Counted from the first letter of the stretch, positions 695-57,513 are shown. The stretch is 64,000 nt of DNA from Lentisphaeria bacterium (GCA_003526375.1 DPDG01000052.1:4139-68138); one strand, 5' to 3'. The notes: generated from the letters alone by a model not told the origin. A program made the numbers and translations.

Positions 695-1056
695 ATGGCG
701 TTACTCCGGTAAATCAAATTTGCACATCGCAAAAGATAATCGGAGTCGCGGTCTGGGATACCGCCAATATGCTCGCGGCAACCTTTGAATCCTTCTACCG
801 TCCGGCGCTGATCGCTCTCGGTGAATCCGTCTCCTTTTCTGCGGAGTTCCGGATGGAATAGACCGGATATTTGCGGTATTTCCGGCAGCGGCGGCTCCTC
901 CGAGTCTCTTGACAGGCGGGAGATACCGCTGTTTTTTTCTCTTTTTCCGTTTTTTCGGTGCTTTTTTGTGGAAAAGTGTCATGAGACATGTATATTCCGT
1001 AAATGTAGGTATGGAAATCGCTTTTTGCATTAAAAAATGGACATCAGGGATAAAAT

Positions 1057-1857
1057 ATGAAACAGAAACTCCTGCTTCTCGGAGCCGTGTTATTCGGCGT
1101 GTTGGCTTTCATGTTCACGTTCAGCCAGATCAATAAGGAAAAGGCGCGTCTGCAGGGGGAGACCTATAAAATCTATCTGATTCAGGTCGCCAGGGATATC
1201 CCGGAGGGGGAAAAGATCACGGAGGATATGATACAGAAGAAACTGGTCCAGCGTTTCCGCAACGCCAGATATGAGCGTGAAATCCCCTATGACAGACGTT
1301 CTCTGGTGATCGGGCGCGAGGCGCAGTCCCTGATCCGCGCCGGAACCCTGCTTCAATGGAGCGACCTCAAAGTGTCTCTTACATCCGGGAAGACCGGGCT
1401 GACCTCCCTGATCCGCCCCGGCTACCGCGCGATCTCGATTTCCGTCGATGCGACCAGCTCCGTGACGGGCCTTGTCCAGCCCAACAATTATGTGGACCTG
1501 ATCGGGACGTTCCGTTTTCCCGACACCCGCGGCGATTCCTCGCTGGATACGATTACCCTTACGATTCTCCAGCGGGTCCGTGTGATCGCAACCGGAACCG
1601 ATATGGGTTTTCTTGCATCCTCCGCCGGGCAGAACTATGCGGCGCGGAGTTACAGCACCGTGACGCTGGAACTGACGCCGAAAGAGGTCGAGATGATTAT
1701 CTTTGCCTCGCAGAAAGGGCGCCTGACCATGAGCCTGCGCAACTATGAGGAGTCCGCAATTACCCAGAAACTGCAGAGCGTCAACTGGAACTTCCTCCAG
1801 AAAAATATCATGAATTACAATGCCGAGCGTGAAAAGATGATGAGAGCCGGAAGATAA
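1057..1857 (+). CDS. cpaB: Flp/Tad pilus assembly protein CpaB (RcpC family)
   Basis: N-terminal TM helix (LLLLGAVLFGVLAFMF), a SAF-like segment, then the CpaB/RcpC block LIRPGYRAISISVDATSSVTGLVQPNNYVDLIGTF. Lies directly upstream of cpaF. Confidence 0.85.
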   Translation: MKQKLLLLGAVLFGVLAFMFTFSQINKEKARLQGETYKIYLIQVARDIPEGEKITEDMIQKKLVQRFRNARYEREIPYDRRSLVIGREAQSLIRAGTLLQWSDLKVSLTSGKTGLTSLIRPGYRAISISVDATSSVTGLVQPNNYVDLIGTFRFPDTRGDSSLDTITLTILQRVRVIATGTDMGFLASSAGQNYAARSYSTVTLELTPKEVEMIIFASQKGRLTMSLRNYEESAITQKLQSVNWNFLQKNIMNYNAEREKMMRAGR

Positions 1858-1874
1858 GGACGGAGGGAGTTCTT

Positions 1875-3629
1875 ATGTATGATATCGTAATCAGAATCCC
1901 GGAGAATGAACCCGTTACCGGACAGCTCGGCAACGGAATTTATATTGTCGGTTCCGGCGCCGATTCCCATATCCAGCTCGATGCGGACGGCATTTCTCCG
2001 CGCCACTGCCAGTTGACGGTGGAGGACGGCGGGATCAAAGTCATGGATCTGGGATCGAATACGGGCACTTATCTTGACGGAGAGCGTCTCGGTGTCGGTG
2101 CGAAAGAGGTTCTGCCCGGTGACGAAATCCGTATCGGGGGGATTGTCATCGAGTTTCCGATGAAGGACCCGGAACCCATTGACGCCCGGCCGCTGGTCAA
2201 TGCGGAGCCCGAACCGCCGAAAGGAGAGACTCCGCCGCCGACAGTGAGTTCAATCGAAAGCAGACTGGAGACGATTTCCGCACCCGGACATGGCGGTGTG
2301 GAGATTCTGTCCGTTTCCGGCGTGCCGTTCGAACACCGCCCCCTTCTGCAGGAGATCAAGAAGCGTGCCCATGCGGAACTGATCAAACGCCTGAACCTGA
2401 AACGGCTCGTCATGAGCGGCGCTTCGGAAAACGACCTGAACAAAAGAGCGGCGAATACGATTCATGAGATCATTGAGGAAATTTCAATTCCTCTGCCGGA
2501 AGGCATTACCAAGGAACTGATCGAACGGGAGCTGCTTCACGAGGCGATCGGGCTGGGACCGCTGGAAGAGTTGATCGCGATGCCGTCCATTACGGAAATC
2601 ATGGTGAACGGCCCCGACCATATTTATGTGGAATACAAGGGAAAGCTGCACCGGACGGATATGGCGTTCGCGGACAATAATCAGGTGATTGCGGCGATCG
2701 AGCGCATTGTATCGCCCCTCGGCAGGCGCATTGATGAAAGCTCCCCGATGGTGGATGCCCGTTTGAAGGACGGTTCCCGTGTGAATGCGATCATTCCGCC
2801 GCTTTCTCTCGTGGGGCCTTCCATTACGATCCGTAAATTCTCGAAGGTTCCGCTGAAAGTGGATGACCTGATCCGGTTCGGCTCCATTTCCGCGGATATT
2901 GCCCATTTTCTTGATATCTGCGTGAAACTGCGCAAGAATATCGTGATTTCAGGCGGAACCGGTTCCGGAAAGACGACCCTTCTGAACATTCTGAGCGGAT
3001 TCCTGCCGGATACGGAACGCATTCTGACGATTGAAGATGCCGCCGAACTCCAGTTGAGGCAGGATCATGTCGTGAGGCTGGAGGCGCGTCCGGCGAACAT
3101 CGAAGGCAAAGGCGAGATCAGTATCCGCGATCTAGTGAAGAACGCGCTGCGAATGAGACCGGACCGCATTGTGATCGGCGAGTGCCGCGGCGGCGAGGCG
3201 CTGGATATGCTTCAGGCGATGAATACCGGTCATGACGGTTCGCTGACGACCATTCACGCGAACTCGCCGCGCGACGCTCTTTCCCGTCTTGAAACGCTGG
3301 TTCTGATGGCGGGATTCGACCTGCCGCTGCGTGCGATCCGCGAGCAGATTGCCTCGGCGATTGCAATCATCGTGCAGATTTCCCGTGAAAAGGACGGCTC
3401 CCGCAAGGTGACTCATGTCAGCGAGATTACGAAAATGGAGGGTGAGATCATCACCATGCAGGATATTTTCGTATTCAAGCAGGACGGCTGGGACAAAGAC
3501 GGGAAGATGACCGGGCGCTATGTGCCGACGGGCAGCATCCCGACCTTTATGGACGATATCAGGCGTGCAGGAATGGATCTGGATATTTCCATGTTCAATA
3601 AAGGCGCCGGAAATGGAGGGTTCCGATGA
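1875..3629 (+). CDS. cpaF: FHA-domain-fused CpaF/TadA-type secretion ATPase
   Basis: N-terminal FHA ([32 protein letters not shown]). C-terminal T2SS-E/VirB11-type ATPase with Walker [13 protein letters not shown] and His box [12 protein letters not shown]. Confidence 0.9.
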
Positions 3630-4507
3630 ACCTGACGGTTTTAGCCAGTCTCTGCGCGGGAATTGCCGTAACCTGCACCGCGCTTGTGTTTGTGGAATTC
3701 TTCTCGGCGCTTTCCGCCCGCTACCGGGAACGTTTCATTCAGGAAACTTCCGTGGAAATGGACGATGTCCTCCTGAACATGCCGCCGTCCAAGATTCTGG
3801 ATGTGAGTCTGGCGCTTGCCGCCGCATGTGCCGCGGCCGCCGTATTTGCCGTAGGTTTTCTGGTGGAGAACATGACCGTGATGAAAGGCGTGGTCGCGGC
3901 GCTGCTTGCCGCGGGGCTCGCGTTTCCTGCGCCGCGTCTGCTGCTGCGTCATCTGCGGAAACAGCGGCTTGCGAAATTCAATGAACAGCTGGAGGATGCC
4001 CTGCTGTCGATCAGCGGGTCTCTGAAGGCGGGATTCAGCATCAATCAGGCGCTGGAGGTGATCGCGAATGAAAACCGCAAGCCGCTTTCCTCCGAATTCA
4101 GCCTGCTGATGCATGAAATTCATCTGGGGGTGTCTCTGGATGAAGCTTTGGACAAGATGGTGGCGCGCTTGAACTGTCCGGATTTCGAGCTCGTTGCAAT
4201 TTCGATCATTACGGCGCGGCAGACCGGCGGCGAACTGACTTCAATCCTTGAGCGCCTGGCGTCCGTGATTCGCGAACGTGTGCGCATTACCGGCAGGATC
4301 AAGGCTCTGACGGCGCAGGGGCGGATGCAGGCTGTGATCATCGGGCTCATGCCCTGGGCGCTTTTCATTGCCATGATGTATATTGCGACGGACATGATGA
4401 CGAATTTCTTTTCCAGCCTGCCCGGCATTCTCTGCATTATCGTCGTGATTGTGCTTGACGTATCCGGTTTTCTGCTGATCCGTAAAATAACTTCCATCGA
4501 TATCTGA
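3626..4507 (+). CDS. tadB: TadB-like platform protein (T2SS-F family)
   Basis: Start overlaps the cpaF stop (ATGA). TM helices at both ends flank a T2SS-F type cytoplasmic domain (SGSLKAGFSINQALE..). Confidence 0.8.
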   Translation: MNLTVLASLCAGIAVTCTALVFVEFFSALSARYRERFIQETSVEMDDVLLNMPPSKILDVSLALAAACAAAAVFAVGFLVENMTVMKGVVAALLAAGLAFPAPRLLLRHLRKQRLAKFNEQLEDALLSISGSLKAGFSINQALEVIANENRKPLSSEFSLLMHEIHLGVSLDEALDKMVARLNCPDFELVAISIITARQTGGELTSILERLASVIRERVRITGRIKALTAQGRMQAVIIGLMPWALFIAMMYIATDMMTNFFSSLPGILCIIVVIVLDVSGFLLIRKITSIDI

Positions 4508-4521
4508 AGGAGAATACGTTT

Positions 4522-5400
4522 ATGGTTCTTACATTGCTCGCTTCTCTCTGCGCCGCGATTGCCGCGGGATGTGTTTTTCTCCTTTTTTTCGATCTGCTCC
4601 GCATGATTGAAATTGAAAAACAGGAAGATGAGATGCATGAATACAAGCGGCTTCCGCTGGTGTTCCGTTTTTTTCTGCCGCTGGTTTCCAATGTGGGTTT
4701 TATAGCGAACCTGCCGCTGTTTGACGTTTCGCGCAGGAATACTGAGGAGATGGTTCAGATGGCGAGTCTTGACCAGGCGGTTTCCGGGCAGCGGTTCTTT
4801 GCTTTGAAAATATTCATGGCACTTTTCGGTTTTCTTCTGTTCATTGTGTTTGCGGCAATGGACAATGCCCTTTCCGGACTGCTTCTCGGCGTTGCATTTG
4901 CATTCTATCCCACCTTGTGGCTGAAACAGATTGTCGCCAGGCGCCATCTTTCGATTCTGAAAGCTTTGCCGAATGTATTGGATCTGCTGACGCTGTCCGT
5001 CGAAGCCGGAAAAGATTTCCTGACGGCGCTCCGGGATATCATGGCGCGGCGCAAGGTGGACCCGCTCGGAGAGGAATTGAACCGCGTGCTTCATGAAATC
5101 CAGCTTGGCAAAGGGCGGCAGACGGCTTTGAAGGAGATGAGCGAACGGGTGCGCCAGCCGGAACTTTCATCGGTCGTGAATGCGATTGTCCAGGCGGATG
5201 AACTGGGCGTGAGCATCGGGCAGCTGCTGCGGATTCAGGGGGACCAGCTCCGGAACAAGAGATTTGTCCGTGCGGAGAAACTCGCGAACGAGGCGCCGGT
5301 CAAGATTCTGTTTCCGGTGGTGGTGTTTATTTTTCCCTCGGTATTCATTATCCTGATCGGCCCGATCGTTTATCAGGCGTTGAGAACACTGGCAAGGTAG
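4522..5400 (+). CDS. tadC: TadC-like platform protein (T2SS-F family)
   Basis: Second T2SS-F domain protein (LDLLTLSVEAGKDFLTALRDI), TM helices at both ends, 14 nt after tadB. Confidence 0.8.
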   Translation: MVLTLLASLCAAIAAGCVFLLFFDLLRMIEIEKQEDEMHEYKRLPLVFRFFLPLVSNVGFIANLPLFDVSRRNTEEMVQMASLDQAVSGQRFFALKIFMALFGFLLFIVFAAMDNALSGLLLGVAFAFYPTLWLKQIVARRHLSILKALPNVLDLLTLSVEAGKDFLTALRDIMARRKVDPLGEELNRVLHEIQLGKGRQTALKEMSERVRQPELSSVVNAIVQADELGVSIGQLLRIQGDQLRNKRFVRAEKLANEAPVKILFPVVVFIFPSVFIILIGPIVYQALRTLAR

Positions 5401-5407
5401 GAGCCGC

Positions 5408-5833
5408 ATGATCTGCAATCTGACGAAAAAGACCGTGATTTCCTCCCGGACCGAATGCGCCGTGGGGCTCTGGCAGAGGGCGAGGGGGATGATCGGGCGG
5501 GATTTTGACTGTTTCGATGCGATGGTGTTCGATCATTGCAGTTCGATCCATACCTGTTTCATGTCGATCCCGCTGGATGTGATTTTTGTCAGCCGTGACC
5601 ATAAAATTCTGAAAACAGTGCGGAATTTAATGCCGTGGCGGCTGTTTGTCTGTTGCAAAAAGGCATTTTATGTGATAGAATTACCTTCCGGTACAATAGA
5701 ACGGACGCGCAGTGCATGCGGTGATATCGTGGATCTGGCGGCGGTGATGGATGCCGGAACGGAAAAAGAGTTCGGCAGTGCTTTGCTCCGGCGGAAAGCG
5801 GAGAGCGCGGTCCGGTGTGAAAAAAAGGATTGA
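5408..5833 (+). CDS. DUF192-like small protein
   Basis: 141 aa. The GLWQRARGMIGR...HTCFMSIPLDVIFVSRDHKIL pattern matches my memory of DUF192/COG1430. Lies 7 nt after tadC. Confidence 0.55.
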   Translation: MICNLTKKTVISSRTECAVGLWQRARGMIGRDFDCFDAMVFDHCSSIHTCFMSIPLDVIFVSRDHKILKTVRNLMPWRLFVCCKKAFYVIELPSGTIERTRSACGDIVDLAAVMDAGTEKEFGSALLRRKAESAVRCEKKD

Positions 5834-5836
5834 GAT

Positions 5837-7345
5837 ATGGTGAAACTTTATTTTCTGAATGGTCCCCGGACCGGCGAATCGAAAGAGATTCCGGCGTCCG
5901 GAGTCTGTATCGGCAGGGAGACGGACAATGATGTTCAGCTTCTTGTCGGCGGCGTTTCGCGTTATCACGCGAAAATCAGCCTGAATCCCGCAGGGAAATG
6001 GCGTGTCGAAGATCTGGGCAGCACCAACGGGACGAAACTCAACGGCAATCCGCTGACGATGCCTGCGCTTTTGAAAGACGGTGACCTGATTGTCGTTGGC
6101 GATCAGGTTCTGCGTTTCGGCGAGGAGAATGCCGGAACTGCGGATAAGACAGCGGAGGTATTGGAGGAACAGGCGCAGAAGAAGAAAAAGCCGCAGGTGA
6201 TTTTCCATACTTCGCGCCCTGCTTCCGCACCTGCGCAAAGCCCCGCACCGGCGGAAAGCGAACCGTCCGACGTGACGCAGAGGGCGGTTCCCCCGAAGAA
6301 ACTGGTGACGATTTCGATTCCTCCGGCAAAAACGGCGCCCGCTCCGGAAAAGACCGCCGCACCGTCTGCCGCGCCGGATATCAATAATCTCTTTTCAAAG
6401 AAGAAAGCGGAGAAAAACGTTCCGGAGCGCCGTTTCCTGCGGCGCGGGAATATCCTGTTCACCATAGGCGTGATCGGGATTGCCGTGATCTTCGTCAGCC
6501 TGTTTCTGCTTTTCGATACAGCGTCTGACAAAAATACCGCCCCGGCGGTGCCTGTTTCCCTGTCGGACCGCAACCCGTTTTATCTGAATTATGAAAAACA
6601 GATTGTCTCAAAGGACAACGTCTTCCGGTTTGCGTTGAAAATCGAGGATAATTCTGCGGTTTTCATGCTGGACGACCTGAAACACCGGCGGCATTTCGTC
6701 CGTAAGTTCGGCGAGATCAACAAGGATTACATGAAGACTCTGCTCAGTTCAATCAAAGAGACCGATTTCATGAAACTGGAGGAGGAACCGCCGTCTCCGT
6801 CCGCTGACGGCGTGGACGAAACACGTTCCCTGACGGTCAGTTATGGACCTTACCTGAACAGCATTACGGTGCGCAACAATTATCCGAAAAGCTCTTTTGA
6901 AGCGATTGAAATGGCGGTGGACCGTTTCGCCGAGGATTACGGACTGAAAACGGTTTCGCTGTCTGCCGTGGAAATGCGGGAGGAGGCGGAGAAGGCGTTC
7001 CTGAAAGCGGAGGATCTGTTTGCCAATTATCAGGCGCGCCCGGACAATCTGCGCAATGCGATTCTGCGTTATCAGATTGCCGTTGAGTTTTATGAACAGT
7101 TCGATCCGCCGCCGAAAGAGTTGAATCTTGCCTCCAGGCATCTGAAAGAAGCGGAGGGGATTCTCAGGAAAATGATCAAGGATGCGGAAACGAACATCAA
7201 TATTCTGTTCCGCCGGAAACAGTATGCGGAGGCTGCGCAGGAGTGCCGGAAACTGATGGAGTATCTGGACCCGGACAGCAAGCCTTATCAGAAAGCGCGT
7301 GCCAATAAGATCAAACTTGAAACTTTAGCGAGCGGAAAGAGATGA
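5837..7345 (+). CDS. FHA-domain single-pass membrane protein with a large extracytoplasmic C-terminal domain
   Basis: N-terminal FHA (CIGRETDNDVQL..VSRYHAKI..EDLGSTNGTKLNG), Pro/Ala-rich linker, one TM helix (ILFTIGVIGIAVIFVSLFLLF), and a ~270-aa C-terminal domain. Confidence 0.7.
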   Translation: MVKLYFLNGPRTGESKEIPASGVCIGRETDNDVQLLVGGVSRYHAKISLNPAGKWRVEDLGSTNGTKLNGNPLTMPALLKDGDLIVVGDQVLRFGEENAGTADKTAEVLEEQAQKKKKPQVIFHTSRPASAPAQSPAPAESEPSDVTQRAVPPKKLVTISIPPAKTAPAPEKTAAPSAAPDINNLFSKKKAEKNVPERRFLRRGNILFTIGVIGIAVIFVSLFLLFDTASDKNTAPAVPVSLSDRNPFYLNYEKQIVSKDNVFRFALKIEDNSAVFMLDDLKHRRHFVRKFGEINKDYMKTLLSSIKETDFMKLEEEPPSPSADGVDETRSLTVSYGPYLNSITVRNNYPKSSFEAIEMAVDRFAEDYGLKTVSLSAVEMREEAEKAFLKAEDLFANYQARPDNLRNAILRYQIAVEFYEQFDPPPKELNLASRHLKEAEGILRKMIKDAETNINILFRRKQYAEAAQECRKLMEYLDPDSKPYQKARANKIKLETLASGKR

Positions 7346-8688
7346 GGAAGAATATGAAGAAATTATTTTCCGTATTGTCAGTTCTTTCTCTGGCGTTCTT
7401 CTTTGCTGTTGGATGTCTGGAGAAGAAAGCGGAAGTGAAGAAACCGAAACTGGATATCACATCGGCGCCGGCGGGAGCGACGGTGTCGCTGCTCGGAAAA
7501 GAGCGGGGCGTAACGCCGTTCCATTGTTCTCTGCTCCCGTCTACTTACATCGTCAAACTTGAGAAATCCGGATACCGGGCGGAGTTGATCAGGGTGGAAA
7601 TCAAGCAGGGGACGGACAGAAAGATCGATGCGAAGCTGAAGCCTGTCACCGCGTCCGTGATGCTGACCAGTGTTCCTGCCGCGGCGCCGGTGATTTTTCA
7701 AGGTAAAAAGATCGGCGAGACTCCGTTGGTGATCAAAGACCTGCCTTACGGGGAATATTCCGCAGAGCTTGCCAAGAGCGGTTATACGAAGCGGACCGTT
7801 TCGTGGAAAATGAATGAAGACGGGCGCCCGGTTCAAGTTAAGACGGACCTCGCTTCCAATGTCGGCACATTGAAGATTACCTCCAATCCCGCCGGGGCGA
7901 CCGTTACCTTGAACGGTACTGTGATGGGACGCACTCCCTTTTCCGAGCGGATCGAGGAGGGCAAACACAATCTGGAGATCTCCAGAGACGGTTACGTTAC
8001 TCTGAAACAGGTCGTGACAGTGGTGCGCCGTCAGGAGACTTCGCTGAAGGACGTGAAGCTTGAGATCATCCCCAGCACGCTGAAGATTACCTCGACGCCG
8101 TCCGGTGCGCGGGTTTTTGTGAATGACAAACAGTATTCGGATACCCCGATGGAGCTCAGGCAACTGAGTCCCGGCGTATATAAGATCCGCCTGGAAAAGG
8201 ACGGTTATGATCCTGCGACGCGCGATGTCACGGTCACGGCGGGCAACGAGCTCGAAGTCGCCCTGAATCTGGACAGCAATACCGGCGGAATTGATCTGGT
8301 GACGGTTCCCAGCTACATCACGATTTATCTGGACGGCAAAATGGTGGGGACAAGCGAGCCGGACCCTGCCAATCCCGGCATGTCCAAACTGCTTTCTCTG
8401 CGCAACCTGAGCATGGGAAAACATGTCGTCACAATCGCCCATAAGCGCGCCCGCCCGGAGAAACGTTCTTTCTCGGTCGAGATTAAAAAGGGCGAGGTCA
8501 AGCGCCTGCCGAATCTCACACTCTGGATCCCGAATGTCAAGCTGACTCTGAAATCCGGCCTGACGCGTGTCGGGCGTCTCGCCTCGAATCTGAAAGAGGA
8601 AATCATGTTCGAACCGGAACCCGGCGTGAAGCAGTCCTATAAAAAAGCGGCGATCAGCGACATTGAATATCTGAAAGCCAACGAATAA
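7342..8688 (+). CDS. PEGA-repeat lipoprotein
   Basis: Lipoprotein signal (LSLAFFFAVGC) followed by repeated PEGA-type modules (ITSAPAGATVSLLGKERGVTPF; ITSNPAGATVTLNGTVMGRTPF; ITSTPSGARVFVNDKQYSDTPM). Start overlaps the upstream stop. Confidence 0.75.
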   Translation: MRKNMKKLFSVLSVLSLAFFFAVGCLEKKAEVKKPKLDITSAPAGATVSLLGKERGVTPFHCSLLPSTYIVKLEKSGYRAELIRVEIKQGTDRKIDAKLKPVTASVMLTSVPAAAPVIFQGKKIGETPLVIKDLPYGEYSAELAKSGYTKRTVSWKMNEDGRPVQVKTDLASNVGTLKITSNPAGATVTLNGTVMGRTPFSERIEEGKHNLEISRDGYVTLKQVVTVVRRQETSLKDVKLEIIPSTLKITSTPSGARVFVNDKQYSDTPMELRQLSPGVYKIRLEKDGYDPATRDVTVTAGNELEVALNLDSNTGGIDLVTVPSYITIYLDGKMVGTSEPDPANPGMSKLLSLRNLSMGKHVVTIAHKRARPEKRSFSVEIKKGEVKRLPNLTLWIPNVKLTLKSGLTRVGRLASNLKEEIMFEPEPGVKQSYKKAAISDIEYLKANE

Positions 8689-8709: not shown

Positions 8710-9252
8710 ATGATTTTAGCGGTTTCTCTGATTGCCTGTATTCTCATTTCCCTGTTGATCGCGGTGGTGACGGGATACTTTATCCGGTCTGCAAGCCTGA
8801 AAAAATGGGAGGAGCTCCCCCGGAAGCGCGGCGCGGGAGCGGTGCTCGGGCTTCTTGCACTTCTTTTTTTCATTCCGAACGTGGAACCGATGTTTTCCGC
8901 GAAGGAAAATCTGACGGTTCTCGTCATTGCCGCCATTGTCCTGACCGTGCTCTGCTATCTGTATCTGGATTACCTGTTTTCCCGCGCTTTTGCGGGTGCA
9001 TTGATCCTGGTCGCGCACTTCATGCTCAATGCCTCTTATGCCGCGGACTTGAAATTCTCATCTTTTTTCGCGTTCATGTGTTTTGTGGTCGGAACGATCG
9101 GAATTTTCATTTCAGCCAAGCCGCACTGGATGCGTGACTGGATCCGCAAAATTGCCGCCAGCACAAAGTGGCGCATTGTTTCGACGGCGGTTCCGCTGCT
9201 TTTCGCAATCGCTTCGCTGATTCTTGTGATCCAACTGAAAGGGGTATTATGA
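8710..9252 (+). CDS. polytopic membrane protein of unknown function
   Basis: 180 aa with about five hydrophobic helices and no recognisable motif. Stop overlaps the rsmG start. Confidence 0.5.
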   Translation: MILAVSLIACILISLLIAVVTGYFIRSASLKKWEELPRKRGAGAVLGLLALLFFIPNVEPMFSAKENLTVLVIAAIVLTVLCYLYLDYLFSRAFAGALILVAHFMLNASYAADLKFSSFFAFMCFVVGTIGIFISAKPHWMRDWIRKIAASTKWRIVSTAVPLLFAIASLILVIQLKGVL

Positions 9253-9911
9253 TTCCGCTTCCGCCTGAAGGTGTGACGGCGTTTCTTCGTGCCTGCAATC
9301 CCGTGGATTACAGTGGTTTTATGGAGAAGATGACACTTCTCGGAGAGCTGCTTTACGAGACGAATGAATCTTTCAACCTGACGGCGATCAAACCGGACGG
9401 ATTCTGGTGCAGGCATGTCGCCGACTCGCTTTCCCCGGCGTTTGCGATGCCGGATTTTTTCAAGACGCCGAAGCATATCTGCGATCTCGGCTGCGGCGCG
9501 GGTTTTCCATCGCTGGTGCTTGCGGCGGCGTTTCCGCACTGTTCCTTCACTCCGGTGGATTCCACCCGCAAGAAAGTCGATTATGTGAATTCAGCCGCGG
9601 AGAAACTGGGGTTGAAAAATCTGAAAGCGATCCATGCGCGCGGAAATGAACTGGGACGCAAGGTGCCGTATCGGCATGCTTATGACTGCGTGACTGCGCG
9701 CGCCGTCGCTTCCTCGGAGATACTGATCCGTGAAAGCGCGGGGCTTCTGAACCGCAACGGTTGTCTGATGGTTTACCGGACTCCTTTGCAGTATGAGGAA
9801 GAACTTGCATTTCTTGAAAAGAATAAAAAAACGGTTTTTGAAACGACGGACACCTTTGCGCTTCCCGAAGACGCCGGCATCCGTCTGTTCCTGCTGATCC
9901 GTTTCAGATAG
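9249..9911 (+). CDS. rsmG: 16S rRNA (guanine527-N7)-methyltransferase RsmG/GidB
   Basis: SAM-binding block DLGCGAGFPSLVLA and GidB-like length. ATG 9249 overlaps the upstream stop (9250-9252), so I prefer it to the ORF-track start at 9168. Confidence 0.85.
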   Translation: MIPLPPEGVTAFLRACNPVDYSGFMEKMTLLGELLYETNESFNLTAIKPDGFWCRHVADSLSPAFAMPDFFKTPKHICDLGCGAGFPSLVLAAAFPHCSFTPVDSTRKKVDYVNSAAEKLGLKNLKAIHARGNELGRKVPYRHAYDCVTARAVASSEILIRESAGLLNRNGCLMVYRTPLQYEEELAFLEKNKKTVFETTDTFALPEDAGIRLFLLIRFR

Positions 9912-13246: not shown

Positions 13247-14161
13247 ATGAGCTGTTTCAAGATGAAATTCACATTGATAGAGTTCTTGATGAGTAAAATC
13301 TGTAAAAGGAGTGTTCCGCTCCGGCATTGTCGATTTGCGCCCTGCGAGGCTTTTTCTTTCTTTATTCGATGGATCAAATGTCTGCCCGGTTCTTCCACCC
13401 TCCATGTCCCCTCTCCGATATTCTTATTTCGCAGGATAGGAACAGGAATTTTCACCCTGATAGAGCTCTTGATTGTAATTGCGATCATTGCGATTCTTGC
13501 GGCGCTGCTTCTGCCTGCATTGGGGAAGGCGCGGGACAAAGCGCAGTCGATCCGGTGTGTCGGCAATCTGAAACAGCTTGGAACCGCCTGTACTGTATAT
13601 ACCGTTGATTATAATGATTATCTGCCTTTGGCGATGGTGAGGAAACCGCACGTGCTGACCGGTTCCGGCTATGAGGGCACCGGCTGGATGGTCTACATCT
13701 ATGAATATGCCACCGGAAAAAGTTTTCCGTGGCCGCTTGCCGCCGGTGAAGCTTTTTCGAAGATTTATATCTGCCCGAGCGGACCGGAACAGGTGGTCAA
13801 ACAGCTCGGCAATGCCCAATGCGATTTCACCAATTACTGTTACAGCGCGCATATCGGAAAGGAACCCGGAGGAGGGTTCTTTTCTTCCGGCGCCGAGTGG
13901 TACAACCCGCTCAAAGTGACGAACTCCAAAATAACCTCGAAACTGGTCGTCATTGCCGATGGGCGTTCGCGCTCGAAAGCGCAGTGGTGGATGTGTTTCG
14001 AGACGAATCAGGCGCTGGAACGGGGGCTGGACGGGCATCTTGACAAGCGGCACAATAAAGCCGTCAACCAGCTGTATGTCGATGGACGGGTCGGCACGGA
14101 GCGTCCCGCCCAGTTGGATGCTGAGACGTTTAATGCAATGTATTTGTTTGTCAAACACTGA
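13247..14161 (+). CDS. prepilin-type N-terminal cleavage/methylation domain protein (DUF1559-like pseudopilin)
   Basis: [46 protein letters not shown] at residues 67-112. Carries an unusually long leader containing a second, degenerate FTLIEFL motif. Start uncertain (13247, 13262 or 13289). Confidence 0.8.
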
Positions 14162-18484: not shown

Positions 18485-19192
18485 ATGAGACGGATTCATC
18501 TTAGATATTTTACATTGATTGAATTGTTAATCGTTATCTCAATTCTTGCAATTCTTGCGGCAATGCTGCTGCCGGCATTATCAAAGGCGCGGGCAAAGGC
18601 AAGACAGGTTGCCTGTCAGGGAAATCTGCGGCAGATCGGGATGGTAAACCATCTCTATACACTTTCCTATGACGGTTTCATTCCGGGATATCTGGAGGAT
18701 GTCTACCGTGCATCGGGGACCAATGCCAGAAGCTGGATTGATATGCTTTATGATTATCAGCTTCAAAATGAAAAAATATTTGAATGCAACGGAATGGAGA
18801 GCGTTATTCCCGGTGGTGTCAAGGGGATCAATTATGGTTTCAGGCGCGATGAAGGCGGAACCGGTAAACGTTTGGGGGACTATGGAGTCAATATTACCAA
18901 TGTAACCGGAAATGTCACGAAAGATAATAAACTTGTCCTGTACTATTACCGAAGGATTGACAGACTTCGGAATTCCTCCGGAACACTGATGGCATCAGAA
19001 GCAAGAAGCAGTGCCAACAGTACCTATCACATAAGCCGTGCCAAAGATAAGAAAACAGTCAATAATATTCGTATCGTGCATGGTAGATATATCAATCTCC
19101 TTTTCTTTGATGCACATGTCGTTCCTCGTTTATATAGTGATCTCCGCGTCCGGGCACAACAGGAAACAGCGATGTGGGAAGGACAATGGTAA
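18485..19192 (+). CDS. prepilin-type N-terminal cleavage/methylation domain protein (DUF1559-like pseudopilin)
   Basis: [52 protein letters not shown]. Starts 4 nt after the LacI stop. Confidence 0.8.
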
Positions 19193-25454: not shown

Positions 25455-27743
25455 ATGGTCGATACTGTTTATTATGCTCATACTTTGCCGGACAAAGGAC
25501 CGGAATCCTGGCAATATTTGAAAGATCATTTGTGTAATGTTGCAAAAATGGCGGCGCAGTTCGCTGCGTCTTTTCATGGAGAGAATTTCGCAAAAGCCGC
25601 AGGGTTTGCACATGATTTCGGTAAATTCAGCTCTGAATTTCAGGCGAGGCTGATGGATGCGGAGCTTGATATGAGTTCGCGTGACAAAGATCACTCTTCC
25701 GCCGGAGCGCAGATCCTGTATGAGAAATTCCTGATGGCAGGGCATTTATGCGCTTATGCCGTGGCGGGGCATCACAGCGGTTTGCTGGATCACTGTTCCA
25801 AAACCGGAAACGGCTGTATGGAGGCGCGGCTCAAAAAGAAATTGCCGCCGTGGAAAACAGCCGAGGCGGAACAAATCCTTGCCGGGATTGATTTGAATTT
25901 TGAACGCGATATTCCGCGAACTCTTTTTGCATCGTCTTCAAGGGAGTTTTCCCTGTCGCTTTTCTGCCGCATGATCTATTCTTGTCTTGTGGATGCGGAT
26001 TTTCTGGATACGGAGGCATTCGTCCTGCCGGAGCAGGCGGCGCAGCGCCCGAAATGGGATTCCGATATTCTTATAAGAATGAACAAACTGCTGGATGAGC
26101 ATCTGGACGGTTTCAAAGAAGAGAACCGGAAGAAAAGATTTAATGAACGTGAAATGAGAGTCCGCGAGTTGAGAAACGGAATTCTGGAGGATTGCCGGAA
26201 TGCCGCGGAGCATGAGCCCGGGCTTTTTACGCTGACTGTTCCGACGGGCGGCGGCAAGACGCTTTCCTCGCTCTCTTTTGCTTTGCGGCATGCCGTAAAA
26301 TATCGGAAAAAGCGGATTGTTTATGTGATTCCGTTCATCTCCATCATTGAACAGACCGCCGGACAGTTTCACGACATCTTCAAGACACTGGAACCGAACC
26401 CCGTATTGGAGGTTCACAGCAATATCCCGCTGGAAAATGAATCCGGCGGCGAGGTGGACGAACTTGCTGACGAAAGACGTATGAAGCGTCTTGCCGGCGA
26501 GAATTTCGATGCGCCGCTTGTTGTGACGACAGCCGTTCAGTTTTATGAATCCCTGATGGGGAACCGTTCTTCGCAATGCCGCAAGCTTCACAACCTGACC
26601 GATGCCGTAATTATTCTTGATGAAGTCCAGAAAATCCCGGTGGAATACATTCACGTGATCCTGACGCTTTTCAAGGAACTGAGTACAACTTACCGGGATA
26701 CGGTCGTAATGTGCACCGCGACTCAGCCTGCACTGGTCGAGAACCGTTATTTCCCGATCGGACTCAAAGAACCGCCTTATGAAATGATCCGTGACCCGCA
26801 AAAACTTTACGAAGCCCTGAAACGGGTCAGGATCGTGAACCTCGGAAAGCAGAGCGATGAAGAACTGCTGCTGCGCTTTGAGGCGGAGGAACAAATGTTG
26901 TGTATTGTCAATACGCGCGGTCATGCTTCAAAGCTGTTTCTCGGACTGAAGCGCAGGAAAGGGGATTATCATCTGAGCACGATGATGTGTGCGGTTCACC
27001 GTGCCGAAGTTCTGAAAGCGATTCGGGAGCGGGTGGCAGCAGGACTTCCCTGCCGCGTGATCAGCACGCAGTTGGTCGAGGCGGGAGTCGATATTGATTT
27101 TCCTGTTGTTTTCCGGTCGTCCGCCGGACTTGATTCCATTGCGCAGGCGGCGGGGCGCTGCAACCGGAACGGCGCTCTGGAAATTGGCAATGTCTATGTT
27201 TTTGAGTCGGAACATCGCCGTTCCGAGCGTTTTCAGCAGTCGGCGGCGAATATCGGCGCGGAGGTGCTGGATGTATACCGGGAAGACCCTCTGGGTTTGA
27301 ATGCCGTGGAGCGTTTCTTCGGTCTTTATTATAACCGGGAGAATGCAAAGTGGGACAGCCGGGATCTGTTGAAAAAGCAGTTTTGGGACTTTCCGCCGGC
27401 GATTGACGGAAAGCGCATAGAGCTTCAGTTCATGTTTGCGTCGGCGGCAGAAAAGTTCAAACTGATCGAACAGGACACGGTTGCCGTGATCGTGGAATAT
27501 GACAGTGACAGCATTGCTCTATGCGCGGAACTGCGAAAGAATCCGATCATGAATTATGGGATTCTCCATCGTTTGCAGCGTTATACGGTTCAACTGCACC
27601 GGCAGGTGTTTCTGCGTCATGCCGGACGGGAAATCGAGCTGCTTCACGGTGATATTCCCGTATTGATTTCAGCATGGACAAATTACAGTAAAGAGGTCGG
27701 ATTGACCTTTGATGATTGTGCAAGTGATCTTTTGGAAGCTTAA
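25455..27743 (+). CDS. cas3: CRISPR-associated helicase/nuclease Cas3 (type I-C)
   Basis: HD nuclease block (HDFGKFS), helicase motif I VPTGGGKT and motif II ILDEVQ. 762 aa; first gene of the cas operon. Confidence 0.9.
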   Translation: MVDTVYYAHTLPDKGPESWQYLKDHLCNVAKMAAQFAASFHGENFAKAAGFAHDFGKFSSEFQARLMDAELDMSSRDKDHSSAGAQILYEKFLMAGHLCAYAVAGHHSGLLDHCSKTGNGCMEARLKKKLPPWKTAEAEQILAGIDLNFERDIPRTLFASSSREFSLSLFCRMIYSCLVDADFLDTEAFVLPEQAAQRPKWDSDILIRMNKLLDEHLDGFKEENRKKRFNEREMRVRELRNGILEDCRNAAEHEPGLFTLTVPTGGGKTLSSLSFALRHAVKYRKKRIVYVIPFISIIEQTAGQFHDIFKTLEPNPVLEVHSNIPLENESGGEVDELADERRMKRLAGENFDAPLVVTTAVQFYESLMGNRSSQCRKLHNLTDAVIILDEVQKIPVEYIHVILTLFKELSTTYRDTVVMCTATQPALVENRYFPIGLKEPPYEMIRDPQKLYEALKRVRIVNLGKQSDEELLLRFEAEEQMLCIVNTRGHASKLFLGLKRRKGDYHLSTMMCAVHRAEVLKAIRERVAAGLPCRVISTQLVEAGVDIDFPVVFRSSAGLDSIAQAAGRCNRNGALEIGNVYVFESEHRRSERFQQSAANIGAEVLDVYREDPLGLNAVERFFGLYYNRENAKWDSRDLLKKQFWDFPPAIDGKRIELQFMFASAAEKFKLIEQDTVAVIVEYDSDSIALCAELRKNPIMNYGILHRLQRYTVQLHRQVFLRHAGREIELLHGDIPVLISAWTNYSKEVGLTFDDCASDLLEA

Positions 27744-27759
27744 CAGGGAGGTGAAAGGA

Positions 27760-28461
27760 ATGGGATACGGAATCAAACTGCTTGTATGGGGAGACCGGGC
27801 GTCGTTTAACCGCCCGGAAATGAAAGTGGAAAGAGTGACTTACGATGTCATGACTCCCAGTGCCGCGCGCGGGATTCTTGAAGCGATTTACTGGAAGCCG
27901 CAGATGAAGTGGGTCATCGACCGGATTCATGTGCTGAACCCGATCCGCTTCAGCAATATCCGCCGGAATGAACTGGGAGGAAAGATTGCGGTGAATATGA
28001 AGAATACTTCGGACGGCAGCGAGATGGGGGTTCTGATTGCGGAGAACCGTCAGCAGCGCGCCGGAATTATCCTGCTGAATGTGAAATATGGGATCGAAGC
28101 GCATATTGACGTCGTTGAAAAGGACCGGACCAACGAACATTCGGGAGCAAAGCATCTGGAGATGTTCAAACGCCGCGCCTCCAACGGCCAGTACTTCCAT
28201 CATCCCTATTTCGGGAATCGCGAGTTCCCGGTCAATTTTGAACTCGTGGAGGAATTTCCGAAACCGCACGAGGAGTTGAAAGATACTGACTTCGGTTATA
28301 TGCTGAATGATATGGTGTTCACACCGGATAAGAAGGGACGGGTTGTTGAAAGCAGTCAGGGGCGCCGTTTAAGTGCGACTCCGGTCTTTTTCCGCGCAAA
28401 AATGAAGAATGGCGTGATTGAGGTTCCTCCCGCTGTTGCGGAAATGGAGGCGGCGGTATGA
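27760..28461 (+). CDS. cas5: Cas5c (Cas5d) pre-crRNA endoribonuclease
   Basis: MGYGIKLLVWGDRASFNRPEMKVERVTYDVMTPSAARGILEAIYWKP is the hallmark Cas5d N-terminus. SD GGGAGG lies 8 nt upstream of ATG 27760. Confidence 0.9.
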   Translation: MGYGIKLLVWGDRASFNRPEMKVERVTYDVMTPSAARGILEAIYWKPQMKWVIDRIHVLNPIRFSNIRRNELGGKIAVNMKNTSDGSEMGVLIAENRQQRAGIILLNVKYGIEAHIDVVEKDRTNEHSGAKHLEMFKRRASNGQYFHHPYFGNREFPVNFELVEEFPKPHEELKDTDFGYMLNDMVFTPDKKGRVVESSQGRRLSATPVFFRAKMKNGVIEVPPAVAEMEAAV

Positions 28462-30233
28462 TACTTCAATCTCTGGATAAATTATATGACCGTATAAAAA
28501 ATGAATCGGAATATAATGTCTCCGAACCCGGTTACAGCCTTCAGAAAATCGCTTTTGCCGTGGTGCTCAATCCGGATGGATCTCTGTTCCAGATTGAGGA
28601 TATCCGCACTTTGAACGGGAAAAAGATGGAACCCCGTCAGCTTCAGGTGTTTGGTGCGACTAAACCCCCCGGAAATGGTTATAATCCTTCATTTCTTTGG
28701 GATAAAACCAGCTATATGCTTGGTTATGTACCGGAGTCTGCAACTGAAAAAGAACTGAAACGCGCGGCACCCTCTTTCAACTCTTTCCGGGAACTGCATC
28801 TTGCGTGTGAAAAAGAGGTCAATGATCCCGCTTTCTCGGCAGTCTGCCGTTTTTTGGAAAAGTGGGAGCCCCGGGAAGCGGCAAACTATCCGTTCCTGGC
28901 GGAAGCAACCGGATATGGTGTATTCAGGATCAAGGCGGAACCGGGATATGTGCATGAGCGTCCGGCAATTGTCGATTACTTCAAACGGACCCGGATGAAG
29001 ACTGCGGATCAGAATGCGGTGACGGGGCAGTGCCTGATCTCGGGGCAGACTGTCCCGATTGCGCGTCTGCAGGCATTGATCAAAGGAATCGGTGCGAAAC
29101 CTGCCGCGCTGGTCGGCTTTAACGACAAGGCTTATGAGTCATATGGCAAGGAGCAGGCGTTCAACGCTCCGGTCGGCGAGGAACAGGCGTTCCGTTATAC
29201 GGTCGCACTGAATGCTCTGACCGATGGCCCGATGAAGCGGCATCACTGCATTTCGATGGGAGACCTGAAAGTGATTTTCTGGGCGGGGAAAAAGAGTCTT
29301 GCCGAAGATTTTGTCGGCGGGTTTTTTGATACGCCCCGTGATTCCGGAGATGATTCGACCCGTAAGAAAATCGCTCTGCTTTTCGAGTGTTTCCGGGAGG
29401 GCAGGATTCCGGACCGGATGCCGGATTTTGACCCCGATGTGCCCTTTTATGTGCTGGGTTTGTCTGTCAATGTGACCCGTTGTGTGGTTCGCTTCTTCTA
29501 TACTTCGACAGTCGGGGTGCTGTTTGAACACTTCAGCCGTCACTTCCGCGATATGGCTTTGGAGCGCCGTTTCGAGACAGATTCTGAGTTCCCGACGGTC
29601 CGGCAGATTCTGGATCAGACCTGTGTTCTGAAAGGCAGTTTCCCTGACCGGGACAGCATTCCGAAGAATCTGCCCGGCACACTGTTTGACTCGATTCTGC
29701 GCGGGATTGATTACCCGGCGGGTGTTTACAACCGGATACTTCAACGTATCAAGCACGACCAGTATCAGGATTATATCAAGGTATCTTTTCTCAAGGCATT
29801 TTTAATACGTAACCATAATAAGGAGTATAGTATGAGTCTGGACAAAAACATTGCGGATCCGCCTTATCTCTGCGGGCGTCTGTTGGCGGTGCTTGACAAA
29901 ACGCAGCGCGACGCTCTCGGCGATACCAATACAAACATTCGTGAAAGTTTTTATGCCGCAGCTTCAAGCCGTCCCGGCGTCGTTTTCCCGCGGCTTCTCC
30001 GGCTTTACTCGCATCATCTCGGCAAACTTCCCACAGGCGCCAGGATTGCCCGCGATTCCCTGATGCAGGAGATCATCGATAAACTGGGACATACCTATCC
30101 TATGAATCTGAATCTTGTGGATCAGGGCACTTTTTCGATCGGTTATTATCAGCAGATGCAGGCTTTCTTCCAGAAAGCGGATAAAAAAGAGACCGGCTCC
30201 GAAGATGAGAATACAAAAGAAGAAACAAAGTAA
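28458..30233 (+). CDS. cas8c: Cas8c (Csd1) large subunit
   Basis: MILQSLDKLYDRI N-terminus, 591 aa, positioned between cas5 and cas7. Start overlaps the cas5 stop. Confidence 0.85.
   Translation: MILQSLDKLYDRIKNESEYNVSEPGYSLQKIAFAVVLNPDGSLFQIEDIRTLNGKKMEPRQLQVFGATKPPGNGYNPSFLWDKTSYMLGYVPESATEKELKRAAPSFNSFRELHLACEKEVNDPAFSAVCRFLEKWEPREAANYPFLAEATGYGVFRIKAEPGYVHERPAIVDYFKRTRMKTADQNAVTGQCLISGQTVPIARLQALIKGIGAKPAALVGFNDKAYESYGKEQAFNAPVGEEQAFRYTVALNALTDGPMKRHHCISMGDLKVIFWAGKKSLAEDFVGGFFDTPRDSGDDSTRKKIALLFECFREGRIPDRMPDFDPDVPFYVLGLSVNVTRCVVRFFYTSTVGVLFEHFSRHFRDMALERRFETDSEFPTVRQILDQTCVLKGSFPDRDSIPKNLPGTLFDSILRGIDYPAGVYNRILQRIKHDQYQDYIKVSFLKAFLIRNHNKEYSMSLDKNIADPPYLCGRLLAVLDKTQRDALGDTNTNIRESFYAAASSRPGVVFPRLLRLYSHHLGKLPTGARIARDSLMQEIIDKLGHTYPMNLNLVDQGTFSIGYYQQMQAFFQKADKKETGSEDENTKEETK
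29832..30233 (+). CDS. cas11: probable internally translated Cas11c small subunit (nested in the cas8c frame)
   Basis: In-frame ATG 29832 is preceded by a strong SD AAGGAG (29820-29825, 6-nt spacer) and yields 133 aa. Internal Cas11c translation is described for I-C systems. Confidence 0.5.
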   Translation: MSLDKNIADPPYLCGRLLAVLDKTQRDALGDTNTNIRESFYAAASSRPGVVFPRLLRLYSHHLGKLPTGARIARDSLMQEIIDKLGHTYPMNLNLVDQGTFSIGYYQQMQAFFQKADKKETGSEDENTKEETK

Positions 30234-30268
30234 TGTTCAGATAACACAAAAAAAGAGGAGATAGAGCC

Positions 30269-31126
30269 ATGACACGTTACGATTTCATGTTCGTTTTCGA
30301 TGCGAAGAATGCAAATCCGAATGGAGATCCCGATGCCGGGAACATGCCGAGAATTGATCCGGAAACAGGAAAAGGCGTAATTACGGATGTCTGCCTGAAA
30401 CGCAAGATCCGTAATTATGTTCAACTGAAATATCAGGATGGCGTGAATCACCGGATCTACTTCAAGGATGCCGTTGTTTTGAATAACCTGAACAAGGAAG
30501 CTTATGATGCCGCCGGATTGTCTCCTGCCAAAGAACTCCCGAAAGAGCTGAAAAAGGCGCGCGAACTGACGGCTTTCATGTGCCGGAATTTTTACGATAT
30601 CCGTACATTTGGCGCAGTCATGACAACGGATGTCAATTGCGGGCAGGTCCGTGGTCCGGTTCAGTTGTCTTTTGCGAATTCGCTGGACCCGATTTTCATT
30701 GCGGAACATGCCATTACCCGCAGTTCCGTCACGAATGAAAAGGACGTTGCCAAGGTGCGTACGATGGGGCGCAAATATACGATTCCCTATGGCCTGTATG
30801 TTGCTTATGGATTCGTGAATCCCCGTCTTGCGGCTGAGACCGGATTCAATGAGGACGATCTGGCTCTGCTGTGGGAGGCACTGGGAAAGGCATTCGAGTT
30901 TGACCAGTCTGCGGCGCGTCCTGCCGGCAGTATGGCAGCACGCAAACTGATTGTGTTCAAGCATGAAAGCGAACTCGGAAATGCGCCGTCCCATAAACTG
31001 TTCGAGCTTGTGAGAATTGCACGTGCGAACGACCCGAAAGCACCTCCGAGAGCTTTTGAAGATTATACGGTTGCAATCGACCGGGAACATTGTCCGAAAG
31101 GCGTGACGATCGAAGAACTGGTCTGA
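30269..31126 (+). CDS. cas7: Cas7c (Csd2) backbone subunit
   Basis: YDFMFVFDAKNANPNGDPDAGNMPRIDPETGKGVITDVCLKRKIRNY is the hallmark Csd2 N-terminus. Confidence 0.9.
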   Translation: MTRYDFMFVFDAKNANPNGDPDAGNMPRIDPETGKGVITDVCLKRKIRNYVQLKYQDGVNHRIYFKDAVVLNNLNKEAYDAAGLSPAKELPKELKKARELTAFMCRNFYDIRTFGAVMTTDVNCGQVRGPVQLSFANSLDPIFIAEHAITRSSVTNEKDVAKVRTMGRKYTIPYGLYVAYGFVNPRLAAETGFNEDDLALLWEALGKAFEFDQSAARPAGSMAARKLIVFKHESELGNAPSHKLFELVRIARANDPKAPPRAFEDYTVAIDREHCPKGVTIEELV

Positions 31127-31146
31127 TTGACTGTTTTTTGCTTCAT

Positions 31147-31187
31147 AAGGGGAAGGCGTGTCCGGGTGATGTGTCTTCCCTTTTTTT
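31147..31187 (+). terminator. intrinsic terminator-like hairpin between cas7 and cas4
   Basis: AAGGGGAAG (31147-55) pairs with CTTCCCTT (31175-82) across a 19-nt loop, running into a T7 tract (31181-87). Confidence 0.5.
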
Positions 31188-31207
31188 GCCTGTAGCAGAG
31201 GTGTGCC

Positions 31208-36201: not shown

Positions 36202-36221
36202 ATTATTTTTTTGTCTTTGTG

Positions 36222-36248
36222 GTATTACGAAAATAAAAAATGTAATAA
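36222..36248. promoter_or_regulatory. predicted NikR operator
   Basis: GTATTAC-N13-GTAATAA inverted repeat lying 20 nt after the nikR stop and just upstream of the -35 of the downstream operon. It resembles the GTGTTAC-N13/14-GTAACAC class of NikR boxes as I recall it. Confidence 0.55.
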
Positions 36249-36264
36249 TTTTTTGAAAAACGGT

Positions 36265-36292
36265 TTGACTTACAGTTACTCTAAGGTATATC
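36265..36292 (+). promoter_or_regulatory. candidate promoter of the pilin-like/CobN operon
   Basis: TTGACT-16 nt-TATATC, 12 nt upstream of ATG 36304 (SD AGAGGA). Confidence 0.35.
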
Positions 36293-36303
36293 TTAGAGGA
36301 AAA

Positions 36304-52732: not shown

Positions 52733-52981
52733 CAGCCTGTCCGTCATGAAGAAAATACCCCAAAACCGAATTGAAATCAATCGTTATCCCACCGCAGAAT
52801 GTAACGCCCGGTGTTATCGTTACATCACCCCACAAAAAAGTAAAATTGAAGAGGCAATATTCCTATTGAAAATATAGAGAGAAAGACAAGGATTTTTCTC
52901 TTTTATGCAGTTATATTTATGCAGTTGTATTTTGTGGTAAGAATGTTATATTATAGGCAATAGCAAATAAGGATTACGCGT

Positions 52982-53896: not shown

Positions 53897-54017
53897 TTTT
53901 TAAACTTACTCAACACGGTTTTACAAAATCAATAAGGTTATTTTCTATACCTAAATGCTTCTTGATAATTCCAAACGAAAAAATAGACCCAAGGTTACCA
54001 AATATTGTGATTTAAGA

Positions 54018-57500: not shown

Positions 57501-57513
57501 TATGTACAAAAAA

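Follow-up and report, generated by a model that had tools for sequence, protein, structure and literature searches.

We analysed a 64,000-nucleotide (nt) stretch of DNA from a Lentisphaeria bacterium (GCA_003526375.1, DPDG01000052.1:4139-68138; hereafter the window), in which seven genes at positions 1057 to 8688 encode components of a Tad-type machine and three accessory proteins. In our preferred reading, to which we assign a probability of roughly 60%, this locus encodes the inner-membrane core and motor of a Tad-type (type IVc) filament machine that belongs to the FHA-CpaF/Kil-related clade, takes a form peculiar to the Planctomycetes-Verrucomicrobia-Chlamydiae (PVC) group and has its pilins encoded at a separate locus. 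The machine type itself is known. New here is the accessory module on such a Kil/FHA-clade Tad-like system, composed of a DUF192 protein, an FHA protein with one transmembrane segment (FHA-TM) and a PEGA lipoprotein.

Gene content and placement of the locus

The gene inventory of the initial annotation was borne out by Pfam and NCBIfam: cpaB, FHA-cpaF, tadB, tadC, the DUF192 gene, the gene of the FHA–transmembrane–periplasmic protein and the multi-PEGA lipoprotein gene follow one another on the plus strand at intergenic distances of 17, -4, 14, 7, 3 and -4 (or +5) nt. The largest gap given there, 21 nt, is the distance from the PEGA gene to the next gene, which starts at 8710. CpaB/RcpC (1057..1857) has an N-terminal transmembrane anchor followed by periplasmic SAF and RcpC domains (Pfam RcpC, 2e-26), lies above the NCBIfam equivalog cut-off (TIGR03177, 148 bits against a cut-off of 71) and is 43-95% identical to its relatives, with a ratio of nonsynonymous to synonymous substitution rates (dN/dS) of 0.04. 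The motor ATPase of the CpaF/TadA family (1875..3629) carries an FHA domain at amino acids (aa) 23-88 (Pfam, 4e-15), a Pro-rich stretch at about aa 95-150 and a T2SSE domain at aa 226-512 (2e-64), with Walker A and His box both intact. The platform is encoded as two adjacent half-size T2SSF proteins of 293 and 292 aa, a TadB-type protein (3626..4507; Pfam, 1e-21), whose gene overlaps cpaF by 4 nt, and a TadC-type protein (4522..5400; 7e-14). The accessory genes are those of the DUF192 (COG1430) protein (5408..5833; Pfam, 1e-14; PDB 3pjy, 8e-4), of FHA-TM (5837..7345; Pfam FHA, 8e-18) and of the multi-PEGA lipoprotein (7342..8688, with the start placed at 7351 by gene callers; Pfam PEGA, 4e-57, in four stretches).

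The FHA-CpaF fusion, to which the initial annotation drew attention, turned out to be described already. Class III CpaF proteins consist of an N-terminal FHA domain, a disordered linker and a CpaF core (PMC12019362), and the window protein shows the same succession of FHA domain, Pro-rich linker and CpaF core; KilF of Myxococcus xanthus is likewise an FHA domain fused to a motor ATPase (Seef et al. 2021, PMC8460266). We compared the ATPases on 240 columns of the published supermatrix (PMC8460266). Over 233 conserved columns, the window CpaF shares 57% identity with KilF and 44% with Caulobacter CpaF. In a rough neighbour-joining tree built from the 240 columns it falls on the Kil/FHA-type side, split from canonical CpaF with a bootstrap support of 96/100; the Lentisphaeria sequences form a clade with a support of 100, and their link to a PVC relative (L042) has a support of 76.

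The arrangement is conserved well beyond this contig. A scan of one genome per GTDB species returned 17 loci, all from Lentisphaeria/Victivallales and including the complete genome of strain WC36, and a word-seeded search with the C-terminal domain of FHA-TM returned 68 clusters, whose few named sources were Lentisphaerae/Lentisphaeria. The order CpaB-CpaF-TadB-TadC-DUF192-FHATM-PEGA is kept on every contig of sufficient length, with FHA-TM identities as low as 30% (tblastn synteny table), in the 17 Lentisphaeria species-level genomes and in further metagenome contigs. The accessory genes are thus syntenic with cpaF in relatives (about 19 lineages), as the initial annotation would have it: FHA-TM and PEGA directly follow tadC/DUF192, overlapping or only a few nt apart, in about 19 of the 24 lineages with enough context, and the PEGA gene lies directly downstream of the FHA-TM gene in every locus for which sequence is available. 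Two further genes, encoding the membrane protein M180 and the methyltransferase RsmG, come after the block in every Victivallales locus, though not in WC36. All nine genes show dN/dS values of 0.04-0.16 in two comparisons and are under purifying selection; the module is therefore functional and not a remnant.

Missing components at the locus and pilin genes in relatives

To look for the Tad components that the locus lacks we read the small open reading frames, ran Pfam on essentially all large open reading frames of the window, and scanned with custom hidden Markov models (HMMs) of secretin, A24 peptidase, TadZ, TadE and TadG, derived from control Tad loci, and with regular expressions for the class III signals of Flp and TadE. 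The HMM and regular-expression scans retrieved all control loci, and phmmer scans retrieved the control Flp and TadE genes. No pilin-like sequence was found among all open reading frames of at least 20 aa in 690-1060, and no Flp, TadE/G, A24 peptidase, TadZ or secretin was found within the 64-kb window, so that the local absence of pilin, peptidase, secretin and TadZ is upheld. The rest of the window encodes, by Pfam, a sialate esterase, Pta, LacI regulators, DUF1559/N_methyl proteins, type I-C cas genes, and CobN, MetRS, NusA/IF2 and other housekeeping proteins of this sort. Contigs that encode an identical CpaF, which stem from metagenome assemblies (one with the label human gut), reach 9 kb upstream of base 1, and these 9 kb hold no Tad genes; their content is a 1208-aa protein with no Pfam match, PGA_cap, GntR, AraC and RhaA. 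Partner genes just upstream of the window, which had been named as a possible objection, are accordingly absent there.

The same components are missing around the related loci. No Flp-type prepilin, TadE/G, A24 peptidase, TadZ or secretin was found within 10 kb on either side of any Lentisphaeria locus, and about 600 kb of related loci gave no secretin, A24, TadZ, TadE, TadG or Flp signal save for one secretin (in L015). Strict and broad regular expressions for Flp/TadE class III signals, applied to the window and to all loci, returned solely PilD-type DUF1559 genes, and ParA-type Pfam families, to which TadZ/CpaE would belong, are absent from every gene list of the window and its relatives. 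The L015 secretin was ruled out as a conserved partner, as it is part of a secretin-HlyD-ABC-FtsX cluster present in one metagenome-assembled genome only. That cluster (13538-19380 of L015, a Lentisphaeria genome, just downstream of rsmG) encodes a Zn-ribbon protein, a 543-aa secretin, an HlyD-like membrane-fusion protein, an ABC ATPase and a MacB/FtsX permease; the pairing of a secretin with a MacAB-type pump is unusual.

Pilin genes do appear in more distant members of the family. A profile of the periplasmic domain of FHA-TM, used in a full HMMER search, returned 523 clusters at 50% identity, nearly all with the domain at the C-terminus of proteins of 420-600 aa, and distant members matched the profile with E values of 1e-29 to 1e-41. 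One locus keeps the order T2SSF-DUF192-FHATM-PEGA (L039). In another (L042) the order is TadE-TadG-two conserved unknowns-CpaB-FHA-CpaF-TadB-TadC-FHATM-PEGA, with DUF192 inverted. In a metagenome-assembled genome labelled Verrucomicrobiae (L040), the region upstream of CpaB-FHA-CpaF encodes two Flp-like proteins, TadE, TadG, another pseudopilin and a periplasmic protein, with FHATM-PEGA 7 kb away; one of the Flp-like genes has the canonical G/AQAMAEY and hydrophobic signature (GAQAMAEY...). Flp, TadE and TadG thus stand beside the module in distant members, from which we conclude that the FHA-TM/PEGA family overall is a Tad system that uses pilins.

With a profile of the PVC-type TadG we retrieved homologues whose names place them in Kiritimatiellia and Verrucomicrobia, and two abundant metagenome clusters of 118 and 139 members. 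From one of these clusters comes a Victivallales relative in which a stand-alone TadE-TadG-pseudopilin trio lies amid housekeeping genes (L043, 9503-12659); NadA of this organism is 72.8% identical at the nt level to NadA of the window, the top match among all loci. The called start of the first gene of the trio misses an upstream class III signal (RRQRG/ASLLEAM...). A kil-like split arrangement is therefore present in a Victivallales relative. The pilin genes of the window organism most likely lie elsewhere in its genome. The initial annotation had named a partner locus elsewhere as what would overturn its proposal; such a locus exists in relatives, as the stand-alone trio, and was seen there rather than in the genome of the window. 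Its suggestion that the machine serves something other than an Flp pilus is disfavoured by this trio and by the Flp, TadE and TadG genes next to distant members of the family.

The accessory module and competing readings

FHA-TM consists of an FHA domain (aa 1-95), a Pro/Ser/Thr-rich linker, a single transmembrane segment at about aa 206-228 preceded by basic residues, and a C-terminal part of 260 aa that belongs to no Pfam family. A confident AlphaFold2 (AF2) model of this periplasmic part (pLDDT 87.9) shows a beta4-alpha-beta2-alpha domain resembling Mago nashi (Foldseek, 1p27_A, E 5e-6, TM-score 0.63) followed by helical repeats of tetratricopeptide (TPR) type, for which matches to consensus TPR (CTPR) proteins were weak. 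Ring-building motifs of the PrgH/YscD type of type III secretion systems (T3SS) were not seen in the model. The Pfam Yop-YscD_cpl model matches both FHA domains of the locus, and weak NCBIfam matches liken the FHA-TM architecture to GltG and to TagH-type FHA membrane proteins of type VI secretion systems (T6SS). In the PEGA protein, Pfam detects four PEGA beta-sandwich domains behind the lipobox; a fifth stretch is PEGA-like, and there is a short tail. Of 20 homologues, 19 have retained the lipobox Cys. The DUF192 protein is predicted to be cytoplasmic because it has no signal peptide. In distant relatives its gene is linked to the FHA-TM/PEGA pair even where it is inverted, and it follows a prepilin peptidase gene on an Alkaliphilus plasmid and tadC on a Moraxella bovis plasmid (NZ_CP087831, L031; cpaB-secretin-FHA-cpaF-tadB-tadC-DUF192-TadE-RHS); no DUF192 gene was found in canonical Burkholderia plasmid Tad loci, which hold every part in one place. 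DUF192 thus recurs in type IV filament loci and is not foreign to Tad machines. The Moraxella bovis locus, in which DUF192 accompanies a secretin and TadE, weakens the claim that the accessory set is non-canonical.

The initial annotation had also suggested that the two FHA domains gate the machine through phosphothreonine. In the CpaF-fused domain the Arg/Ser/Asn residues that bind phosphothreonine are missing in every Lentisphaeria sequence and in Moraxella, so a phosphothreonine switch is plausible for one of the two FHA domains only, that of FHA-TM, which keeps the canonical GR...SxxH...STNG residues in Victivallales. These residues are lost in FHA-TM of WC36 too. Gating in the form proposed is thus retained in part.

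If our preferred reading holds, a CpaF hexamer would turn the TadB/TadC platform and thereby assemble, and perhaps also retract, a filament whose Flp/TadE/TadG-type subunits would be encoded at another locus, as in the split Myxococcus kil clusters. The bitopic FHA-TM may stand in for the TadZ/GspL-type adaptor that is missing: on the cytoplasmic side, its FHA domain could dock a phosphorylated partner, e.g., the Ser/Thr-rich CpaF linker, and its Mago-like/TPR periplasmic part could bind the PEGA lipoprotein. The latter, a predicted string of about five immunoglobulin-like domains, is estimated to be long enough to span the periplasm, and the pair, together with CpaB, might link the motor with the outer envelope or signal envelope contact. 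DUF192 would act as a cytoplasmic accessory factor.

Several points weigh against this reading. The contacts of FHA-TM with CpaF and with the PEGA protein are inferred from gene adjacency only, and the CpaF tree is a rough one of 240 columns. In the window and the sequence upstream of it, no pilin, prepilin peptidase or secretin was found for this organism. No CpaC-type secretin beside cpaB, no TadZ and no TadV was found in any family member locus examined, the distant relatives L040 and L042 included as regards the secretin, and because of this the passage of the filament across the outer membrane is left unexplained. No Ser/Thr kinase of the Pkinase family was found in the window or any flank, and a conserved phosphatase was not found there either, the single SpoIIE/PP2C gene, 7 kb away in one lineage (L011), being non-conserved. 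Finally, in four lineages (L009, L020, L021 and L041) the FHA-TM/PEGA pair has no Tad genes within 9-10 kb. The pair may hence be independent of the motor, and since it can occur away from Tad genes it may be structural or only regulatory.

The missing secretin invites a variant, which we consider unlikely, in which these loci are a secretin-independent Tad-like subclass of the PVC group. FHA-TM, PEGA and CpaB would then form the trans-envelope part that replaces TadZ and the CpaC secretin, and the filament would be confined to the periplasm or otherwise unconventional; it could serve secretion, envelope sensing or contact rather than form an extruded adhesive pilus.

The isolated pairs raise a different explanation, in which FHA-TM and PEGA (with or without DUF192) are an autonomous envelope-sensing or signalling module that is co-regulated with the Tad motor or regulates it, without being a structural part. 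The pair is the tightest unit of the locus, always adjacent; in L041, and likewise in L036, it adjoins GspK/PilN/GspD genes instead of Tad genes, with DUF192 inverted; the canonical phosphothreonine-binding residues of FHA-TM are typical of signalling FHA proteins, and the weak resemblance to GltG and TagH points the same way. However, the pair directly follows tadC/DUF192 in most lineages with enough context, no kinase or phosphatase is co-conserved with it, and even away from Tad genes it still stands beside another type IV filament system, which ties its role to such machines. We therefore regard this explanation as improbable.

Slightly less credible again is, in line with the initial annotation, a motor and platform that work without Flp-type pilins, e.g., in pilin-independent export or envelope remodelling, the lineage having lost pilin, peptidase and secretin. 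The absence of all these components from the window and from the surroundings of every Lentisphaeria locus would fit, as would the unusual accessory set and the want of a dedicated secretin in any family member. Yet Flp, TadE and TadG genes adjoin the module in relatives from the family, the isolated pseudopilin trio of the Victivallales relative would be purposeless without such a motor, and homologues of its TadG-like protein are abundant in metagenomes.

The DUF1559 genes suggest another substrate. The window has three DUF1559/N-methyl prepilin-like genes with the G|FTLIEL signal (13247-14161, 18485-19192 and 36211-37185), members of an expanded PVC family that lie beside LacI-type regulators and glycan-active genes, and similar genes flank several related loci; the motor could polymerise such PilD-type pseudopilin-like proteins for a secretion like that of type II systems, or for surface display, in the service of polysaccharide-utilisation loci. 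This is very unlikely: the DUF1559 genes show no synteny with the block, the prepilins known from Tad-clade machines are of the Flp/TadE type and are cleaved by TadV-type peptidases, the PVC relatives have Flp/TadE-type genes and not DUF1559 beside the module, and GspD/GspK-type genes exist separately in relatives. Last, a decaying Tad remnant, to which the local absence of four canonical components might point, is close to refuted by intact open reading frames, preserved catalytic motifs, the dN/dS values and an architecture that stays the same across the entire class.

It is customary to equate Tad-type machines with adhesive Flp pili. Should FHA-TM and PEGA prove to be an envelope-spanning or gating part, they would represent a second way of coupling the outer envelope to a type IV filament motor, and DUF192 and the PEGA domain would be placed in a functional context for the first time. 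The family is large (the 523 clusters above), comprises Lentisphaeria and relatives annotated Verrucomicrobiae, and has no description in the literature searched, where no connection is drawn between pili or FHA and either DUF192/COG1430 or the PEGA domain, and where Tad systems in Lentisphaerae are not dealt with. Within the family the FHA-type motor is always accompanied by this membrane FHA protein and this PEGA lipoprotein, and a dedicated secretin or TadZ never goes with it. As the hosts are common anaerobes of the human and animal gut, and at least one relative, WC36, has a complete genome, the system may be testable.

Flanking genes, other window features and known systems

The operon probably starts in a promoter-like region at 915..996, in the 362-nt gap upstream of cpaB. 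By consensus scans only, a terminator-like hairpin of the upstream gene with its T-run (915-930, plus strand) is followed there by a sigma70-like promoter match (969-996, plus strand). Further upstream (65-694 in the window, and the corresponding regions of the contigs with identical CpaF, L001-L006), a large protein with no Pfam match varies between 1208, 1052 and 1046 aa, or is replaced by two of 823 and 215 aa. This region is thus strain-variable and lies beside a highly conserved operon.

Downstream of the PEGA gene, M180 (8710..9252, plus strand) is an orphan membrane protein of 180 aa and six helices, for which Pfam, NCBIfam and PDB searches gave no sequence match and a confident AF2 model (pLDDT 90) gave no fold match. 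It is co-conserved with the block in Victivallales (not in WC36), has a dN/dS of 0.15 and accounts for only 18 clusters among 5.8 billion proteins; it may belong to the operon. A pair of invariant Asp residues, 56 positions apart, had made it a candidate A24 prepilin peptidase, which was rejected as it has no GxGD motif and no A24 sequence or fold match. Its gene overlaps by 4 nt with rsmG (gidB; 9249..9911, plus strand), encoding a 16S rRNA methyltransferase (Pfam GidB, 4e-32). This housekeeping gene, also called on the contigs with identical CpaF, is probably co-transcribed with the block.

Elsewhere in the window, a type I-C CRISPR-Cas operon (25455-32856) encodes Cas3, Cas5d, Csd1/Cas8c, Cas7, Cas4 and Cas1, with no repeat array in the 1.5 kb downstream of cas1. 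In the segment 37170-42692, the gene of a 1275-aa CobN-type chelatase is immediately preceded by DUF2162 transporter-like and MotA/ExbB-like genes, with which it may form a CobN-linked energised uptake module. An island at 52000-58000, with a GC content of 39-43% against about 53% elsewhere, carries genes for an ORF6N-domain protein and for a 1015-aa fusion of an N6-methylase with a type I specificity subunit, and was probably acquired horizontally.

Among known systems, PrgH/YscD with PrgK/YscJ of T3SS, TagH of T6SS and GltG share with the window pair a cytoplasmic FHA-type domain, one transmembrane segment, a periplasmic domain and an adjacent lipoprotein gene, within a trans-envelope machine. 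In the window, however, the periplasmic part of FHA-TM is Mago-like and TPR-like, with no ring-building motifs, and the lipoprotein is made of PEGA repeats and is not YscJ-like; this likeness is an analogy of architecture only.

A Tad (type IVc) system, as defined by Denise and co-workers in 2019 and in TXSScan, reportedly comprises a CpaF/TadA ATPase, TadB and TadC, CpaB/RcpC, Flp, TadV/CpaA, RcpA/CpaC, TadZ/CpaE and TadE/F/G. Here we found the ATPase, the paired TadB/TadC and CpaB/RcpC, and at the locus we did not find an Flp prepilin, TadV/CpaA, an RcpA/CpaC secretin adjacent to cpaB, or TadZ/CpaE; TadE/F/G are absent from the window, lie beside the module in L040 and L042 and form the stand-alone trio in the Victivallales relative. 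The locus thus shares CpaB/RcpC, CpaF/TadA and paired TadB/TadC with the canonical Tad/Flp systems (A. actinomycetemcomitans tad, Caulobacter cpa and Burkholderia plasmids), which, unlike it, unite Flp, TadV, secretin, TadZ, TadE/F/G and, as a rule, TadD at a single locus; its CpaF differs from theirs in carrying an FHA domain and in falling outside the canonical clade.

The class III CpaF loci of beta- and gamma-proteobacteria (Moraxella bovis NZ_CP087831 and Achromobacter CpaF E3HIW0; PMC12019362) have the order cpaB...FHA-cpaF-tadB-tadC-DUF192 in common with the window. The Moraxella CpaF is 51% identical to that of the window over 525 aa, with an FHA domain degenerate at the same positions, and the DUF192 proteins are 27% identical (E 1e-13). 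In contrast to the window, the Moraxella locus has a CpaC-type secretin between cpaB and cpaF, and TadE after DUF192, then an RHS toxin gene, and it lacks the FHA-TM and PEGA genes. On this plasmid (L031, 2099-13869) the FHA-CpaF Tad locus is directly followed by the gene of a 1516-aa RHS-repeat toxin, which hints at a Tad-linked toxin-delivery or killing locus.

The Kil system of Myxococcus xanthus, encoded at two loci rich in FHA proteins and lipoproteins (PMC8460266), provides another close comparison. It differs in that kilF is flanked by genes for a short secretin (KilC) and for a prepilin peptidase (KilA), and in having the pilins KilK/L/M, with Flp and pseudopilins encoded in its second cluster (PMC8460266), none of which are at the window locus; DUF192, a PEGA lipoprotein or a Mago-like/TPR FHA-TM are not reported for Kil, the accessory proteins being compared by description only. 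Kil serves contact-dependent predation (PMC8460266), whereas nothing ties the anaerobic gut Lentisphaeria to predation. In both systems, on the other hand, the motor ATPase has an N-terminal FHA domain and lies on the same side of the CpaF tree, and further FHA proteins accompany TadB/TadC/CpaB, FHA-TM in the window and, among those of Kil, a PrgH-like FHA protein (PMC8460266). Both also have predicted lipoproteins of unassigned role and no TadZ, and components are spread over separate loci in Kil (PMC8460266) and probably so in the window organism. Kil is a Tad-type machine rewired for another contact-dependent task, with FHA proteins as its suspected control layer (PMC8460266).

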